A stretch of DNA of 64,000 bases from an uncultured Bacilli bacterium (GTDB taxonomy: Bacteria; Bacillota_I; Bacilli_A; RF39; UBA660): contig CANQNL010000001.1 in the NCBI GenBank assembly GCA_947625215.1, forward strand, positions 10,122-74,121, read 5' to 3'. How positions within the stretch are numbered: the first letter of the stretch is position 1; each line of letters starts with the position of its first letter. The position numbers are program-made. Below are positions 33,001-45,000 of this stretch, piece by piece.

Positions 33001-36000
33001 AATATTTTCAAAAGCTTCACCGATTATTTTTAAGGCTAATTCCGGATTATTTACAAATTCATCAGAACAAACCATTTTGCCTTCAATACTTTCAGTAATC
33101 AAAAATTCAGTATTGTCGTTTGTCTCATAAAAAGTAATTTTAGGTACTAAAAGTTTTCCATTTAACCATTTTAATTTTTCATATTCGCTTGTAAGCATCC
33201 CTTTTTTAGCCATTTTTAAAAAATATATTTTATCTTCTTTTTCAATTTTTAAAACTTGCGAATCAGAACAACCTATACCAATTTCTTCAATATTGCTATT
33301 TTCTAGAAACTTTGAAACTTTATCAGTAAGTTCATAATGAAAATTCATATAAATTACCTCCTTCTAGGTGCTTGTTTAGTTTTTTTTAGTGTTTTTTCCT
33401 TTTGTTCTTTATAATAATCATAATTACCTAAATATTCATTAAAGTTTTCATTTTCGATATTTACAGTTCGTTCAGCTAATTTATTTATGAAAAATCTATC
33501 ATGGGAAATAAATAATATTGTACCTTGATATTCATTAAGTGCTTCTTCAAGCATTTCTTTAGTATCAATATCAATATGATTAGTTGGCTCATCTAAAATA
33601 AGTAAATTTGCTTTTTTTTGAATTAATTCAAATAATTTTAGTCTTACCTTTTCACCACCAGATAGAGTCCCCACTCTTTTAAATACGTTTTCTCCATAGA
33701 ATAAGAACTTTGCTAATGAAGCTCTTAAATGAGTTTCAGTACCATTATAAAATTTTCTTGCGACTTCAAGAACTGTATCTTTATCATTATTAAATCTAAT
33801 TTCTTGTGGTATGTAGCCTACACTTACATTACTTCCTATTTTTATTTCACCACCACAAACATTATCACCATTTAATATACCTTTGACAAAAGTAGATTTA
33901 CCAGTTCCGTTTTTTCCCATCAAACATACTTTTTCGCCATAATTTAATGAGAAATTAGCATCATCCAATAAAACTTTATCACCAGCTATCATATCTAAAT
34001 GATTAACCTTTAAAACTTCTTTACCAGAACGACCATCTATTTCAAAATCTAATGGTAATTGTTTTTTAGAATCAGGTTTATCTAGTAGTTCCATTTTTTC
34101 TAATCTTTTTTCAATGCAAGCAGCTCTTCTAAAAAAACGTGGATTATCGCCTCTTTCACCCCATTCTTTAAGTTTTTTTACAGTTGCTTTCATTGCTTCT
34201 ACTCTTTTTTGCTGATTTTTATATTCATCAAACTCAGCTAAAGCTCTTCGCTCGCTTTCTTTAAGATAATAAGAATAATTACCATAGTAAACATCTTCTT
34301 TGCCTTTATCAATAAAAATTGTTTTAGTAGCAACCTTATCTAAAAAATAACGATCGTGTGAACTAATAATAATTGTTCCTTTATAATTTGAAAGAAAATT
34401 CTCAAACCATTCTAAGGTTTCTATATCTAAATGATTGGTAGGCTCGTCTAATAATAAAACATCTGGATTGCTAATAATTAATGAAGCTAAATTTACAATC
34501 GTTTTTTCACCACCTGATAAAGTATTGAATTTTCTTGTAAGCATATTATCAGATATTTTAAAACCACCACATATTTTACTGATTTTTTCATCTAGTTCAT
34601 ATCCACCCATATTTATAAAGCGTTCTTGTAATTTTCCATATTTTTCAAGTAGTGTATCCAAATTGTCTTGATTAGATGTATTAGAAAGTGCCTCTTCGTA
34701 AGATCTTAAATCTTCTTCTATTTTTAATAATTCTTTATAACTATCTAACAATACATCTTTTACCGTTACATCATCAGCTCTTTTTGGTGGAATTTGTGGA
34801 AGCATTCCAATATTAGCATTTTTTCTAATTGAAACTTGACCACCATCTAAATTTTCTTCACCAGATATCACTTTGAATAATGTTGTTTTTCCACATCCAT
34901 TTGGACCAATTAAAGCTATTCTTTCACCAGTAGTAGCTTCCAAATTAAACTCATCTAATACATTTTTAAATCCAAATGTTTTTGTTGCATTATGAACACT
35001 TACATCTATCATAATCTCACCTCTCTATCATCGCTATCATCTATAATTATATTATACCATATGATAGCTAAATTTTATATTACCTTTCCTAAAATATTGA
35101 TTTGTTTTTGTATATTTATATTACGTGTTCTTAAAAGAATAAAATATTGTTTTTTTATGCGATTATCTATAATAACACTATTTTTGTTACGTGGCAATTC
35201 TTTTAATTCGATTTTATGATCTAATTGGTATTCTAAACCAGTATTTTCTATTTTTTTAATTATATTTTGAAACAAATTATAATCATCAACCCAAATAGGA
35301 AATCTATGCCAGACATTGCCTTGTTCTAAATCATAATCAATGTATTTAATTATTTTTTGTTTCTTTAACAACTCAGTATATGCTTTAGCATTTTTTCTTT
35401 GTTCTTGAGCAATACTATTAGCTAATGAAATCATTTTATTATAATCCATTGTTTCACAAAGTGGATATACGTATGATTGTAATATTCGTTCACTTTCCCT
35501 ACTTTCATTGTCACAAAAATCAATACTATCAATAATTGTTTTATCATTGAAGAATATTCCACCACCAATACCATAGCTAATAGGCTTTGTTTTTCCAAAT
35601 GATGTTACCACAATATCCGAATATTTACCTACTTCATAATTATCTTTAGTTATATCCCAAGCCTGAGCAATATCTTCAATGATTTTTATATTCATATTTT
35701 TATATTTTTGAACGTCTATATCATTAAATAATCCAAACTGATGAATAAGCATAATACAATCAATATCGTATTTATCTAATGCATAAACAATATCATTGTC
35801 TTTTAAAGTTAGACCATTAATGGGATATATTATTATAGGATTCATTTTTAACTTTAAAATTGTATTAATAATAGAATAGCAAGTATTAGAAGATACTAAG
35901 ATATTTGCTCCTTCTTGTAAATTTAGACTTGTTAATGCTATTTCAATAGCCAATGTTCCAGAAAAGGTTATGATTCCATATTTTTTGTGAAATTTTAAAG

Positions 36001-42000: not shown

Positions 42001-45000
42001 AATATGTTTGGGTTAATGCATCTAAGCCAAGTAAAACTGGTGAATATGGGAAATCCTCTTCAACTAAGATATGCGTTTTTTTATTTAATGCTGATGCCCA
42101 ACCTAATTCTATATGTACACCTCCAGAAATACCATTTGAAGTATTATTTCCAGGTATCACAATTAAAAAATCACTATCTTTTAATGCTTTATAATCTCTC
42201 ATTGTACTTTCTTGAGGATTTTTATAATATTCTCCCCATTTTTCTTCACGAATAGCTAAATAACACTTATGACCTTTATTTTCTATTATAGAAATCAAAT
42301 TTAAGAAAAATGCTTTATATTTATCTTTTATTTCATATTTGTTATCGTTGCAAAGCCCAGAAAATGGACAAGATATAAATACTTTCATATACTAATTCTC
42401 CTTTAATTCGTTTTTAGAAAAATACATTTTTTTTGATAAGATTTTATTTGTTAATGATGTTTCTTGGATGCATAGATTGTCATTTATTCCACGACCTATT
42501 AATCTTCCATCAGAATTTATAAGTCTATGAAAATCGCTACCAACTGACGTTAATACATTATATTTTGCTGCTTGCTTTTGTAAAAATTCACTATCAGCAT
42601 AACTACAGTCTGATTGATATACTTCTATACCATCTATTCCTAGTGATATAAGATTTTTGATAATTGGCTCTACCTGTTCACGGCTTAATTTATATGCCAT
42701 TGGATGTGCAAAAACTACCAGTCCACCAGCAGTATGTATTCCATCAATTACCCTACTTACAGGTAAATCGTAATCAGTACCATAACTAAATCTATTAGTT
42801 TTAAAATATTGTTTATAATAGTTTATTACTTCCAGAGGAAAATACTCTTGTTCCATACATTTAATAACTTCTCTATCAAACCAACAATATTTTTCCATAT
42901 CCAAACTTGCAAGACTTTCTTCTGGTAATTTTTTTAATCTTTTTTGCAAAAAATTTAATAGTTCAATGTGAGCATTTAATCTTTTTTCTTTCATTTCAGT
43001 TAATAAAGTAACTAATTTTTCATTATTTTCATCAAATCCGTATCCTAAAATATGTAGCCTTATTTTTTGCCCGTTTTGAATTATATATGATGAAAATTCT
43101 ACTCCTTTTACACCTTTCATATCTTCATACAAATAATTTTGCAAAAATTTTATACCATTTATAGTATCATGATCTGTTATAGCTAATATTTCAGTATTAT
43201 TTTTATGAGCCATATCAACAACTTCATTACATGAAAACATACCATCTGATTTATTTGTATGAATATGCATATCAATATATTTTCCCATAACCTTCACTCC
43301 TTTGATAAAAATTATACAAGTTTTATATCAAATTGACCAATATAGATTTTTTATACTCCATAAATTTTGTTTATAGCAAAAAAACAAATTCAAAACGAAT
43401 TTGCTAGTTACTATCTTTAAATATTTTTATAAATGCCTTAGCAACATCATTAACATATTTAGTATGATATGCTATACTAACAGGCGTTAAAACTTGATTA
43501 ATATCTACTTTTACTTCATATAATTTTCCGGATTTTAAATCATCTTTTATAAATTCTTTTATCATCCATCCAATACCAATACCTTGATTTATGATCCCTT
43601 TAGTAATTGATGAGGAATTAACTTCTACAAGAGGTTTTAAAATAACATTTTTTTCTTTAAAATATTTATCGATCATTTTTCTATTAGCAGTAGTAGAGCT
43701 TGGAAGGATTAAAGGATATTGATTCAAATCTTTTGGATCAAGTTTTCCTTTTTGAGAAATGTCTTTGTATTGATAATTGCAAACAAAGCAACTTTCTAGA
43801 TCAAAAACTTTTCTAACTTTTATTGTGTTATCATCAGGGATAGCCATATTGGTGTCAATAACTATATCTAATTCTCTTTTTATAAGCATATTTAACATTT
43901 CATCAGATTTTTTATTGATAATATTAACTTTTACATTAGGATATATTTGATTGAAGAGTTTTAAATAATTTACAAAATAGAATGTTCCGATGTGTGTTGG
44001 AACACCAATATTTAAAACTTCTTTCTTAATATCATTTAAATCATCTATTAAATTTTTATTTGCCTCAACAAGTTCACATAAATGTTCTGCGTAATGATAT
44101 ACTAATTCTCCAGCTTTAGTTAATGAAATACCTTTTGAATCACGTTTAAAAAGTTCAACATCTAGCTGAGTTTCTAATTTTTTTATTGCATGTGTTACTG
44201 CTGGTTGGGATATATATAGTTTTTCTGAAGCTTTAGTAAAACTATTGTATTTTGCTACAATGTAAAAAGTTTTATATAAATTTAAATCAACATCGTACAT
44301 ATTAAATTAATCCTCCATTAATTACATAATATTATATACCAAAATATAACATTTTACAATTTAACTAATTCCTAGCTTCTTCTTATAAAAGAATTTGTAA
44401 TTCCTAGTAATATAGATTATATTTTTTTTGATATCATCATTATATTTGTGAACTTTTACAAAGAAGTTTCACTTTTATAAAATACATCATAATCTTCCAT
44501 ACATTATCCTATAAATTATCTATTTTTTATACTCCATAGGCCAAACCTATCCACTGGGCTGGACCAGACATATATGTACAAGCTGATTTGTTATGCGTAA
44601 GTACTCCAAACTTGCTGACATAATAACTATGATTATCTTTTACTGAAAGGTTATAAACTTTTGTGGTATCGACAAAATTAGTTTGGACATTTGTAATTAT
44701 AACTTCACCACCATCTATTGTTAATATTTTATCTCCTTTTTTAATTTCTTCAGCTTTTGTCCATCCCTTATTTATAACATAAAATGGATGTTCGTGAGTA
44801 CATTTTAATTCATTGTCATCGGTTAAATCTTTTGAATTATAATGACTTCCTATATTGTTAATATGAGAAACTAAATTTGAGTTCATTTTATTATTTTTCT
44901 CATATTTTATAGTTATAATTTCAGCTGATTTATTTATATATACTTCTTCTATTTCTTTTAACTCTGTCTTTTCTGATTTTTCATTATATGAATATACTTT

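Follow-up and report, generated by a model that had tools for sequence, protein, structure and literature searches.

The block of interest occupies positions 32572 to 44300, on the minus strand, of a 64,000-nucleotide stretch of an uncultured Bacilli genome (the window; G+C 22-31%). It opens with a LysR regulator gene, continues with nine closely spaced biosynthetic genes and ends with genes for an ABC-F ATPase and an APH(3')-family protein. A sequence-only reading had counted ten genes downstream of the regulator within 35075-44300, but this interval holds nine plus LysR itself, and the ABC-F and APH genes lie beyond it (to 32572). Otherwise, every ORF was present on the minus strand where it had been called, and the family assignments were reproduced. 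Likely true starts were set from ribosome-binding-site spacing and orthologue alignments, giving ATG codons at 43288 for the PHP gene (8 nt 3' of AAAGGAG), 41910 for the radical SAM gene, 38577 for the gene of the 280-aa protein and 36037 for DegT2. The features, in the direction of transcription, are:

44527-46059, minus strand: PT-HINT gene, upstream copy (Pfam PT-HINT)
43404-44300, minus strand: LysR regulator (Pfam HTH_1 and LysR_substrate)
43311-43339, minus strand: promoter-like site TGGTCA-17-TATAAT (consensus scan, 10/12 matches)
42392-43288 (uncorrected 42392-43297), minus strand: PHP-domain phosphoesterase, TrpH/YciV type (Pfam PHP)
41915-42388, minus strand: predicted CMP N-glycosidase, MilB/BlsM/BcmB family (profile against PDB, active-site residues)
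40888-41910 (uncorrected 40888-41940), minus strand: radical SAM-SPASM enzyme (Pfam Radical_SAM and SPASM)
39767-40888, minus strand: CGA-synthase-like glycosyltransferase, GT-B type, 373 aa (NCBIfam TIGR04467)
38567-39754, minus strand: predicted DegT/DnrJ/EryC1-family PLP sugar aminotransferase (Pfam PF01041)
37735-38577 (uncorrected 37735-38589, 284 aa), minus strand: tandem-GNAT protein, 280 aa, Fem/MprF-like (AlphaFold2 and Foldseek)
36773-37735, minus strand: second tandem-GNAT protein, 320 aa, FemX-like (AlphaFold2 and Foldseek)
36024-36761, minus strand: class I SAM-dependent methyltransferase (Pfam Methyltransf_25/11/12)
35075-36037 (uncorrected 35075-36103), minus strand: short DegT-family PLP enzyme, DegT2 (Pfam PF01041)
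33354-35012, minus strand: ABC-F ATPase (NCBIfam NF000355)
32572-33348, minus strand: APH(3')-family O-phosphotransferase (NCBIfam NF033068)
30921-32468, minus strand: PT-HINT-domain secreted protein gene, downstream copy (Pfam PT-HINT)

The tight packing claimed earlier was borne out with the corrected starts, no overlap from the PHP gene through the short DegT gene exceeding 14 nt and no gap exceeding 12 nt; the ABC-F gene is preceded by a 62-nt gap and the APH gene by one of 5 nt. Continuity into these last two genes had also been proposed, and a scan of the minus strand from 44300 to 30869 returned no terminator-like site. The TGGTCA-17-TATAAT site (43339-43311), a consensus match only, lies inside the 106-nt gap between LysR and PHP and is a candidate operon promoter. 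A weak 9-bp hairpin and T-run (-7.2 kcal/mol, z = -1.8) follows the LysR stop codon and, together with the promoter-like site before PHP, suggests that LysR is probably transcribed as a separate unit. LysR heads the block in about 20 loci and is likely to be the pathway regulator. The two PT-HINT genes (30921-32468 and 44527-46059) are 88% identical and form a direct repeat that brackets the cluster, the DNA repeat, promoter region included, having a spacing of 13,591 nt.

The complete set of 12 genes, from LysR to APH and with gene order unchanged, was found in about 20 other species-level genomes, with protein identities of 45-79%, a recurrence that places the arrangement far beyond chance. 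Nearly all of the syntenic genomes are gut Bacilli MAGs, and the closest relatives of the cluster are in uncultured members of this group. If the block belonged to capsule or teichoic-acid loci, related genomes should show it embedded there; instead, its flanks are unrelated between genomes (SMC, PBP5 and def in one; Ddl, an S51 peptidase and MetK in another). The four genes for the glycosidase, radical SAM enzyme, glycosyltransferase and DegT form a core that is also present in Paenibacillus and Clostridia MAGs, accompanied there by different genes for tailoring and export. The conserved block itself carries no exporter gene, and no gene for a polyprenyl-phosphate or priming transferase, flippase, polymerase or nucleotidyltransferase. 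In variants, APH is joined by genes for a Ham1-like house-cleaning NTPase and a small GNAT.

The protein first described as nucleoside 2-deoxyribosyltransferase-like, and proposed as kin of MilB and BlsM, matched in profile comparisons with PDB BcmB (4jen, 6.4e-39), MilB (4jem, 2.2e-32) and BlsM (5vto, 5.5e-31), against only about 1e-3 for classic deoxyribosyltransferases. These profiles place it specifically with MilB, BlsM and BcmB, not with the classic deoxyribosyltransferases. The MilB catalytic and binding residues, with the hmCMP-specific Arg/Lys (MilB-23), served as the reference set (PMC4081090). F9, E49, D65, S88, G90 and E94 are invariant, their MilB counterparts being F22, E62, D78, S97, G99 and E103; all seven MilB active-site positions are invariant, the hmCMP-specific Arg/Lys excepted. 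Position 10 is Ser, Thr or Ala, never Arg or Lys, the BlsM-type, non-hydroxymethyl signature. The block has no thymidylate-synthase-like (ThyA-like hydroxymethylase) gene, which fits plain CMP as substrate, and the enzyme probably frees cytosine from CMP.

The 373-aa protein had no Pfam match, but the CGA-synthase-like glycosyltransferase role earlier thought conceivable was supported: TIGR04467 (CGA_synthase) was the only NCBIfam model matched by the family as a whole (28/28 members, best E 8.2e-12), three others being matched by just one or two members each. More distant relatives scored 68-127 bits to CGA_synthase, mostly across near-full model length, and CGA synthase is, by these profiles, the sole named member of the superfamily. 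Rosetta-stone fusions in other genomes join the glycosidase to the glycosyltransferase (n=6 representatives), the glycosyltransferase to DegT (n=2, one being P0351) and the glycosyltransferase to the radical SAM enzyme (n=1, P0471). Coupling of a free base to a nucleotide-sugar is therefore suggested, and superfamily membership and fusions together point to the joining of cytosine to a UDP-sugar.

The radical SAM enzyme has invariant CNANCVFC and GGGEP motifs. As anticipated, its best PDB match was BlsE (7vob, 1.7e-20), over the N-terminal half (radical SAM core) only, followed by SkfB and by BtrN (4.5e-9), the last being 11 orders of magnitude below BlsE. It may carry out a radical oxidation or dehydration on a nucleoside sugar, in a BlsE- or BtrN-like role. 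Both this enzyme (60 bits against the BlsE equivalog cut-off of 400) and the glycosyltransferase (22.6 bits against 300 for CGA synthase) fall far under equivalog thresholds, so that departures from the known pathways in base, sugar donor or radical chemistry are possible. The radical SAM enzyme also scored 77 bits to PADLOC pVip and 68.5 bits to NCBIfam viperin_w_prok, which, with the Ham1 NTPase of the variants, raises the idea of a viperin-like anti-phage defence making a chain-terminating nucleotide analogue. This can hardly be credited, since neither score reaches the cut-off of 180 and many unrelated radical SAM families score as well or better (AhbD, 95.8 bits), the other proteins of the block match only generic ATPase and methyltransferase domains in PADLOC, and aminotransferases, Fem-like enzymes and a base-releasing glycosidase are foreign to viperin chemistry.

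Two DegT-family PLP enzymes had been predicted and both were recovered by PF01041, at 299 and 99.8 bits. The first had as its best solved matches perosamine synthetase (194 bits), Kdo8N transaminase and PseC-like enzymes, with glutamine:2-deoxy-scyllo-inosose aminotransferases also among the matches; it would be a sugar aminotransferase with a BlsH/GouH-like role. The short DegT is divergent and N-terminally short (orthologues 318-328 aa), it aligns to 7n63 at the catalytic Lys, and it may catalyse a dehydration or a further amination. Such enzymes are typical of NDP-sugar pathways, and upstream in the window lie DUF6020 membrane proteins, a UDP-galactopyranose-mutase-type FAD oxidoreductase, a large glycosyltransferase-like protein and a 3263-aa protein, as might be expected if the product were an unusual amino sugar, activated as a nucleotide derivative and destined for a surface glycan (capsule, teichoic acid, S-layer glycan). 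This alternative, raised already in the sequence-only reading, is very improbable. A HINT gene separates those upstream genes from the cluster, they adjoin it in no other genome examined, and the block lacks the priming, flipping, polymerizing and nucleotidyltransferase functions named above. Furthermore, a base-freeing CMP N-glycosidase has no role in glycan assembly, and fusions link it to a glycosyltransferase whose sole relatives are base-glycosylating CGA synthases.

The 280-aa protein had no family match in Pfam or NCBIfam, but its AlphaFold2 model (pLDDT 92.8) gave A-PGS, MprF, FemX and Sbb17/Sba18 as top Foldseek matches (E 7e-9 to 1e-7, TM 0.54-0.62). The 320-aa protein showed a weak Pfam Acetyltransf_6 match, and its model (pLDDT 75) matched FemX (1e-9) and then the aminoacyl-tRNA-dependent peptide synthases Sbb17/Sba18. 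The two proteins thus have the Fem/MprF/Sbb17-type tandem-GNAT folds expected of the Fem/GNAT-like transferases proposed earlier; hhalign detected no relatedness between them. Sbb17 and Sba18 act on an amino-sugar antibiotic scaffold, and both proteins are modelled as candidate aminoacyl-tRNA-dependent transferases, the 280-aa one amide-forming; tandem GNATs that use acyl-CoA rank further down both Foldseek lists, and the folds would suit these as well. The methyltransferase, confirmed as such by Pfam, is presumably a tailoring enzyme and is missing in five loci (L006, L027, L029, L031, L032).

The APH-like gene passed the APH(3') family cut-off (NF033068, 223.1 bits against 205), and resembles APH(3')-IIIa (PDB, 150 bits) and APH(3')-IVa. 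Together with ABC-F it travels with the cluster in other genomes, and may encode self-resistance or a prodrug kinase. With the BtrN match and DegTs resembling BtrS/BtrR, it could also be taken as self-resistance of the kind found in the butirosin producer, the product then being an aminoglycoside or aminocyclitol. That is very improbable: no 2-deoxy-scyllo-inosose or inositol-phosphate synthase gene was detected with Pfam or NCBIfam, the radical SAM enzyme is far closer to BlsE, the glycosidase and glycosyltransferase indicate a nucleobase-sugar core, and no ABC-F protein is known to give protection against aminoglycosides. PHP is kept in the cluster across genomes, including the rearranged locus L036; its TrpH/YciV type is consistent with its NCBIfam scores, both sub-cut-off, to RNase RNM (134.8 bits) and 3',5'-nucleoside bisphosphate phosphatase (119.7 bits). 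It may act as a phosphatase on a nucleotide or phospho-intermediate, supplying CMP or stripping a kinase-added phosphate. Streptomycin is de-phosphorylated extracellularly, whereas the PHP enzyme is cytoplasmic, so that model does not fit.

ABC-F is the best-conserved gene of the block (64-79% identity across syntenic loci) and encodes a soluble, two-NBD protein with a linker. It passed the ribosomal protection-like model (NF000355, 452.8 bits against 380), with EttA models under their cut-offs, and it travels with the cluster; however, its scores against solved structures (EttA 285, Uup 281, PoxtA 264, VmlR 261 bits) put it no closer to resistance ABC-Fs than to EttA/Uup. Protection against blasticidin-type drugs is not known for any ABC-F. 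The protein is a candidate factor for ribosome protection and self-resistance. A possible, if unlikely, alternative is that the product, a soluble metabolite combining a sugar with cytosine or another pyrimidine, does not target the ribosome (an antimetabolite, signal or cofactor-like nucleoside), with ABC-F as a general translation factor and APH biosynthetic, as in the phosphorylation-assisted deoxygenation by GenP in gentamicin biosynthesis. The EttA/Uup scores, the lack of an exporter, and the nucleotide-level chemistry suggested by kinase, phosphatase and Ham1 NTPase favour this, as does the glycosidase's closest solved relative, BcmB, from the pathway of the thiamine antimetabolite bacimethrin. 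However, the hallmarks of that pathway (ThyA-like hydroxymethylase, ThiD kinase, Arg/Lys at MilB-23) are missing, ABC-F passes the ribosomal protection-like model and fails those of EttA, and every rearrangement of the cluster either keeps it or puts a different ABC-F in its place: L036 kept APH and swapped its original ABC-F for a non-orthologous one. Variants group APH with a small GNAT and ABC-F in one module, as a resistance sub-cluster would.

The peptidyl-nucleoside reading was supported, with no guessed homology failing at the 'works like' level. We favour, with moderate confidence, a self-contained cluster at 32572-44300 for a cytosine aminohexopyranosyl peptidyl nucleoside of the blasticidin S/gougerotin class. 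In such a pathway, an operon under LysR control, the glycosidase, with its conserved active site, would hydrolyse CMP to free cytosine, and the glycosyltransferase would link this to a UDP-sugar. The radical SAM enzyme would activate the sugar to a keto or deoxy-keto intermediate (compare BlsE and BtrN), DegT would transaminate it to an amino sugar, and the short DegT would add or alter a second position. Both tandem-GNAT enzymes would then use aminoacyl-tRNA to load one or two amino acids onto the amine(s), and the methyltransferase would tailor the product. The producer would shield its ribosome with ABC-F and mask or inactivate the compound inside the cell with the APH(3')-like kinase, and PHP would work on the nucleotide precursor or remove the APH-added phosphate. 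Neither literature on this cluster nor a description of its product was found; the cluster is a previously undescribed variant of the peptidyl-cytosine nucleoside pathways, compact, widely conserved among uncultured gut Bacilli, and carrying its own candidate resistance genes.

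The block at 32572-44300, in which all sizeable ORFs lie on the minus strand, probably encodes a peptidyl nucleoside pathway of the blasticidin/gougerotin class, whose product would target the ribosome and whose producer would be protected by an ABC-F protein and by O-phosphorylation. The window is very AT-rich (G+C 22-31%). The genes of the block are given below from the LysR end; families were assigned by profile search unless stated otherwise, and moved starts were set by orthologue alignment and RBS spacing.

Genes of the 32572-44300 block

43404-44300, minus strand: LysR regulator
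42392-43297, minus strand, start moved to 43288: PHP/TrpH-like phosphoesterase
41915-42388, minus strand: NDT-like protein, 157 aa
40888-41940, minus strand, start moved to 41910: radical SAM-SPASM enzyme (rSAM)
39767-40888, minus strand: 373-aa glycosyltransferase-like (GT-like) protein, without Pfam match
38567-39754, minus strand: DegT aminotransferase (DegT1), strong match
37735-38589, minus strand, start moved to 38577: 280-aa protein, without convincing family match
36773-37735, minus strand: 320-aa protein, without convincing family match
36024-36761, minus strand: class I methyltransferase
35075-36103, minus strand, start moved to 36037: short DegT (DegT2)
33354-35012, minus strand: ABC-F
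32572-33348, minus strand: APH

These profile searches reproduced the family assignments of an earlier, sequence-only reading of the region, which had counted ten genes after LysR; the interval from LysR to DegT2 in fact holds LysR and nine genes. With the revised starts, the junctions from PHP to DegT2 are gaps of no more than 12 nt or overlaps of no more than 14 nt. A scan of the minus strand for intrinsic terminators found no terminator-like site in the block, the first being at 30869, past the next downstream gene. Directly 3' of the LysR stop, a weak AT-rich hairpin followed by seven T was read by eye (43375-43405; 9 bp, -7.2 kcal/mol), and was overlooked by the scan because its stem has fewer than three G-C pairs. 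Given this hairpin, and a promoter-like site that a scan placed within the LysR-PHP gap, the initial picture of a single operon starting from LysR was revised: LysR is probably transcribed apart, and the operon probably runs from PHP to APH. No riboswitch or leader RNA was found by an Rfam E-value scan of 30000-47000.

The NDT-like protein had been proposed to be a CMP N-glycosidase, and this family call was borne out. A profile of 19 orthologues matched the solved structures of BcmB (4jen, 6.4e-39), MilB (4jem, 2.2e-32), and BlsM (5vto, 5.5e-31), whereas classic deoxyribosyltransferases scored about 1e-3 or worse. The key residues of MilB are F22, R23, E62, D78, S97, G99, and the catalytic E103, and its pyrimidine-recognition motif is F-L-x-x-P-F-x-x-L (PMC4081090). 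The corresponding motif in the window protein is F4-I-S-C-P8-F9-S-G-L, of which F4, P8, and F9 are invariant in the 19 orthologues, as are E49, D65, S88, G90, and E94; HMMER aligned F9 and these five to the MilB residues. Position 10, the equivalent of MilB residue 23, is Ser, Thr, or Ala; Arg or Lys at this position characterizes hydroxymethyl-CMP enzymes linked to a hydroxymethylase, while BlsM, which uses CMP, has Met (PMC4081090). Profile searches found no ThyA/MilA-like CMP hydroxymethylase gene in the cluster. By every sequence criterion the NDT-like protein is a BlsM-type glycosidase, and it is the residues at position 10, together with the lack of a ThyA/MilA-like gene, that point to plain CMP as its predicted substrate.

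The closest solved homologue of the glycosidase, BcmB, belongs to the bacimethrin pathway of Clostridium botulinum, likewise a low-GC Firmicute, and there too a methyltransferase lies alongside. In BcmB, which has a linked CMP hydroxymethylase, the hmCMP-recognition residue is a Lys (PMC4081090). Because BcmB was the top structure match, a bacimethrin-like pathway was considered; it was rejected, since the cluster lacks a hydroxymethylase and a ThiD kinase, as well as Lys/Arg at the specificity position. The bacimethrin pathway, for its part, has no GT, rSAM, DegT, or Fem-like enzymes.

For the 373-aa protein a role like that of cytosylglucuronate (CGA) synthase had been suggested, and this stands at the level of the superfamily but not of the equivalog. 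Its only NCBIfam match was to CGA synthase (TIGR04467; BlsD/MilC), at 22.6 bits against an equivalog cut-off of 300. The same model was matched by all 28 of 28 homologues (best E 8.2e-12), and MurG and MJ1255 by one or two only. A GT-like profile search of 1.84 billion representative proteins returned 1,137 relatives, among which ten intermediate, high-GC proteins scored 68-127 bits against TIGR04467, most of them spanning nearly the whole model (e.g., 3-382 of 382); none of the relatives scanned reached the 300-bit cut-off. On the strength of these matches, all short of 300 bits, the 373-aa protein is assigned by sequence to a large superfamily, the sole named member of which is the cytosine-glycosylating CGA synthase, and is not an equivalog of that enzyme. 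The superfamily counts over 1,100 representative clusters, of which hardly any are annotated. Motifs invariant in the GT-like family are F10-G-Y-G-P14, G249-L-(G)-N252-x-x-E255, and P267-x-x-N-Y-S-Q273, which by eye resemble the glycine loop and the C-terminal G-x-G-x-x-x-E / P...Q of GT-B enzymes. Comparison of the profile with PDB sequences gave nothing meaningful, and the GT-B fold is a prediction from HMM homology and motifs.

Natural fusions among the proteins recovered by this search link the four core genes (glycosidase, rSAM, GT, and DegT1) to one pathway, independently of their annotation. Six representatives fuse glycosidase to GT (P0438, P0443, P0455, P0458, P0460, and P0486), two fuse GT to DegT (P0376, and P0351, which is 41% and 50% identical to the two window proteins), and one fuses GT to rSAM (P0471). 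In the window and in the full-length related loci, glycosidase and GT genes occur in one block with the rSAM alone between them, except at loci L013 and L035, where no glycosidase gene was detected.

A BlsE-like role for the rSAM is plausible. The CxxxCxxC and GGEP motifs, as defined for BlsE-type enzymes (PMC3715490), are invariant in the form C41-N-A-N-C45-V-F-C48 and G82-G83-E84-P85, and the best solved match was BlsE itself (7vob, 1.7e-20, query residues 22-153 only), ahead of SkfB (1.5e-13) and BtrN; an aminocyclitol pathway is a very slim prospect. The motifs and the best solved structure fit the proposed likeness to BlsE, but the match extends only over the N-terminal core, and the score against the BlsE/MilG/ArgF model TIGR04466 was 60.3 bits (residues 32-157 only; best orthologue E 2.9e-25), compared to an equivalog cut-off of 400. 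Within NCBIfam, the unrelated SPASM families AhbD, WgkB, and mycofactocin outscored TIGR04466. The cluster enzyme differs from BlsE in its cysteine-rich SPASM C-terminal domain, which does not align to BlsE. This domain carries an invariant C284-D-C286-S-I-H289 (C-x-C-x-x-H, in the numbering of the ORF as listed), which may correspond to C317-x-C319-x-x-C322, reported as a possible second-cluster site of BlsE (PMC3715490). DegT1 is a standard sugar aminotransferase, and DegT2 is short and divergent with the catalytic lysine kept.

Neither the 280-aa nor the 320-aa protein gave a significant match to a sequence family or to a PDB sequence. The 320-aa protein scored 20.1 bits against Acetyltransf_6 (cut-off 22), a family matched by one of 26 members of the 280-aa family; neither protein matched Pfam FemAB or DUF2156, and hhalign found no relatedness between the two. 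Since sequence searches were unproductive, their folds were taken from AlphaFold2 models, built from alignments of database homologues (pLDDT 92.8 for the 280-aa and 75.1 for the 320-aa protein), and from Foldseek. The top 30 matches of the 280-aa model were mostly A-PGS, L-PGS, MprF, FemX, and Sbb17 (E down to 6.7e-9, TM 0.54-0.62), and the 320-aa model matched FemX (1e-9) and Sbb17 (6e-9). Overall, E-values were 1e-9 to 1e-7 and TM scores 0.53-0.62, at 9-14% sequence identity, with acyl-CoA tandem GNATs further down the same lists. The modelled tandem-GNAT folds, which resemble FemX, MprF/aaPGS, and Sbb17/Sba18 first, agree with the earlier description of both proteins as Fem-like. Sbb17 and Sba18, of streptothricin-related pathways, are recently solved 'aminoacyl-tRNA-dependent peptide synthases' bound to streptothrisamine. 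They acylate the amine of an amino-sugar antibiotic scaffold, the role proposed for the Fem-like pair, with aminoacyl-tRNA as the predicted acyl donor.

The neighbouring methyltransferase was also considered as an Erm-like resistance enzyme and this was rejected: the match was 36.5 bits (cut-off 212) and confined to the N-terminal Rossmann part, and several variant loci lack the gene. It is treated as a tailoring enzyme.

The ABC-F protein has two nucleotide-binding domains and a linker (Pfam ABC_tran twice, and ABC_tran_Xtn) and no membrane domain. It passed the cut-off of the ribosomal-protection-like model NF000355 (452.8 bits, cut-off 380) and failed those of the EttA models (390.7 and 382.7 bits, cut-offs 599 and 806), while no named ARE subfamily cut-off was reached (Vga, producer-type, OptrA, Sal, CplR, Msr, Lsa), the scores being, for example, 323.7 bits for the producer type (cut-off 800) and 333.9 for Vga (cut-off 725). 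Against PDB sequences it scored 285 bits with EttA, 281 with Uup, 268 with YbiT, 264 with PoxtA, and 261 with VmlR, so that by sequence it is no closer to PoxtA/VmlR than to EttA/Uup. The APH passed the cut-off of the APH(3') family (NF033068, 223.1 bits, cut-off 205) and reached no named APH(3') subtype, with APH(3')-IIIa as its nearest structure (150 bits). Both genes accompany the cluster in every full-length locus. In the rearranged locus L036, the APH is kept beside a small GNAT and a Ham1-like NTPase, and the original ABC-F is replaced by a different one of 27% identity, a non-orthologous swap that would be difficult to account for if the pathway could do without an ABC-F. That the product might instead be a soluble nucleoside metabolite, and not a ribosome inhibitor, is unlikely in our estimation. 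The conserved block contains no exporter gene.

The block is a conserved and portable unit. The 373-aa protein had 119 database homologues, all unnamed, annotated as hypothetical, and from Bacilli or Firmicutes metagenome bins, and a scan of one genome per species yielded 30 loci. Nearly all of these were in MAGs of uncultured gut Bacilli, 'Tenericutes', or Erysipelotrichaceae (rabbit, goat, human); the 30 also included two Clostridia MAGs and two cultured species, Paenibacillus periandrae PM10 and P. faecalis Marseille-P3787. In a tblastn matrix, the order LysR-PHP-glycosidase-rSAM-GT-DegT-280aa-320aa-MT-DegT2-ABC-F-APH was complete in about 20 loci. Identities across the syntenic loci were 36%-79%, the ABC-F being the most conserved gene (64-79%).

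Across 16 loci, flanking genes were shared only by near-identical genomes and otherwise differed. They include SMC, PBP5, and deformylase at L003, D-Ala-D-Ala ligase, S51 peptidase, and SAM synthetase at L037, and ribonucleotide reductase, GAPDH, and PriA at L036, and the downstream neighbours in the window are FtsW, ComEA, ComEC, DnaG, SigA, and TrmK. The sequence-only reading had named embedding in capsule or teichoic-acid loci as an outcome that would speak against it, and no such embedding was seen. A pathway supplying a sugar for a surface glycan is accordingly very unlikely: besides the differing flanks, with housekeeping genes at L003 and L037, domains of priming transferases, flippases, or polymerases were found in none of the 12 proteins. 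Even less probable is an anti-phage system, as nothing beyond generic matches (ATPase, methyltransferase, rSAM core) came out of a PADLOC scan.

The part of the window upstream of the cluster, 46158-63140, is a possible surface-glycan or adhesin region whose genes are unlinked to the cluster in other genomes. It holds a 3263-aa ORF, two genes for DUF6020 membrane proteins, one for an FAD oxidoreductase (748 bits to NCBIfam PRK07208), and one for a 726-aa protein with weak similarity to XrtG-associated glycosyltransferases. The cluster itself is bracketed by two copies of a PT-HINT (pretoxin Hint) gene (30921-32539 and 44527-46131), which are 88% identical, resemble each other in their promoter regions as well, lie as direct repeats at a spacing of 13,591 nt, and encode a secreted product with a DUF7507 domain. 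This arrangement suggests that the cluster was inserted into, or duplicated around, a paralogue pair, and recombination between the copies could excise or duplicate it. Only about 25-30 residues follow the Hint domain in the PT-HINT proteins, an unusually short 'toxin' tail.

Variant loci show the core in other company. In P. faecalis (L034, 6872-20776), the four core genes occur with a PPDK/PEP-utilising enzyme, DUF1152, Exo_endo_phos, NTP_transf_5, and a pair of ABC exporters, and P. periandrae (L033) carries a core rSAM-GT-DegT-glycosidase cassette; the Paenibacillus cassette probably specifies a different member of the same compound class. The core also recurs in a more distant MAG, with a B12-radical SAM protein and a xylose-isomerase-like TIM-barrel (AP_endonuc_2) as partners, and there no glycosidase was detected. 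At the distant variant locus L005 (GCA_054268455.1, 10001-21152), GT-like and DegT genes are found with an 826-aa B12-binding radical SAM-SPASM protein, a second rSAM-SPASM, an AP_endonuc_2 protein, a methyltransferase, and a Fem-like GNAT. Several loci have extras lacking in the window, namely a Ham1-like non-canonical NTP pyrophosphatase, a GNAT of about 160 aa beside the APH, and an AP_endonuc_2 protein (L036, 2209-14075; L037, 15853-16452 and 18992-19468; L021, L022, L027, L031, and L032). A 295-aa protein without Pfam match (L003, 14845-15732) also has no counterpart in the window; its gene is situated between the methyltransferase and DegT2 in five loci (L003, L004, L008, L015, L016) and upstream of PHP in two (L021, L022).

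In the pathway that we infer for the cluster, CMP would be hydrolysed to release cytosine, which would then be glycosylated from a UDP-sugar. Radical activation of the sugar and one or two transaminations would follow, then the transfer of one or two aminoacyl groups from aminoacyl-tRNA, and finally methylation of the product. The resulting peptidyl nucleoside would target the ribosome, with the ABC-F and O-phosphorylation, the putative role of the APH, protecting the producer, and PHP may either use a nucleotide precursor as its substrate or undo the phosphorylation. The literature yielded background papers only, and nothing describing this cluster.

Peptidyl-cytosine nucleoside clusters as such are already known. 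Those for blasticidin S (BlsM, BlsD, BlsE, and BlsH of Streptomyces griseochromogenes), mildiomycin (MilB, MilC, MilG), and arginomycin (ArgF) have the same four enzyme types side by side: a CMP N-glycosidase, a base-glycosylating GT, a radical SAM enzyme, and a DegT-type PLP enzyme. Compared to these, the present cluster lacks an arginine 2,3-aminomutase, an ATP-grasp ligase, and an MFS exporter; it adds a second DegT, a PHP phosphoesterase, an ABC-F, and an APH(3'), and its peptide attachment is predicted, from the modelled folds, to proceed via two Fem-like aminoacyl-tRNA-dependent transferases. Its hosts are low-GC, mostly uncultured gut Bacilli, whereas the blasticidin-type clusters are found in actinomycetes. 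Gougerotin, from Streptomyces, and bagougeramine, from Bacillus circulans, are 4-amino-4-deoxy-hexuronamide cytosine nucleosides with a dipeptide, and in gougerotin one of the two amino acids is N-methylated. By description, they resemble the cytosyl hexopyranose predicted here, aminated once and acylated with two amino acids, and gougerotin-like chemistry would fit one main aminotransferase, two amide-forming enzymes, and one methyltransferase. As far as we know, the gougerotin cluster has no radical SAM enzyme and no Fem-like transferases, and we know of no published gene cluster for bagougeramine, which does show that Firmicutes can make peptidyl-cytosine nucleosides. A soluble ABC-F and an enzyme of the aminoglycoside kinase family that end a biosynthetic operon likewise recall the ABC-Fs of producers (OleB, CarA, SrmB, TlrC, LmrC, VarM) and producer APHs (e.g., APH(3')-IVa of the butirosin producer); compared with the producer-encoded ABC-Fs, the drug class under protection would be new.

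What sets this cluster apart is the host range, the SPASM-type rSAM, the second DegT, the PHP/APH pair, the dedicated ABC-F, and, as judged from the models, the two Fem-like ligases instead of ligases of the ATP-grasp or NRPS type. More tentatively, a so far unrecognised family of cytosine peptidyl-nucleoside antibiotics that target the ribosome may be widespread among uncultured gut Bacilli with small genomes, in humans, rabbits, and ruminants. Its members would be assembled anaerobically, with a SPASM rSAM and two aminoacyl-tRNA-dependent Fem-like ligases, and the producers would be guarded by a kinase/phosphatase prodrug cycle and by a dedicated ABC-F, the first specific for peptidyl-transferase-centre inhibitors of the blasticidin/gougerotin type. 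The chemistry can be tested now, because two cultured Paenibacillus species carry the four-gene core, and the cluster is a defined 11-kb target for heterologous expression. The base-glycosylating GT superfamily, large and unannotated, is a resource for genome mining. To our knowledge, the known producers of peptidyl-cytosine nucleosides (blasticidin S, gougerotin, and mildiomycin among them) are almost exclusively actinomycetes, and Streptomyces is the only genus in which the core chemistry of these compounds has been elucidated. The cluster, which is conserved over many host species, would extend this core logic to gut Bacilli that are anaerobic and mostly uncultured, in combination with different peptide-forming enzymes, the tRNA-dependent Fem-like transferases, and with a SPASM radical SAM enzyme of a distinct type. 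It may yield a new antibiotic scaffold from the gut microbiome, and its ABC-F is a candidate for a new resistance specificity, one that could already be circulating in gut bacteria.
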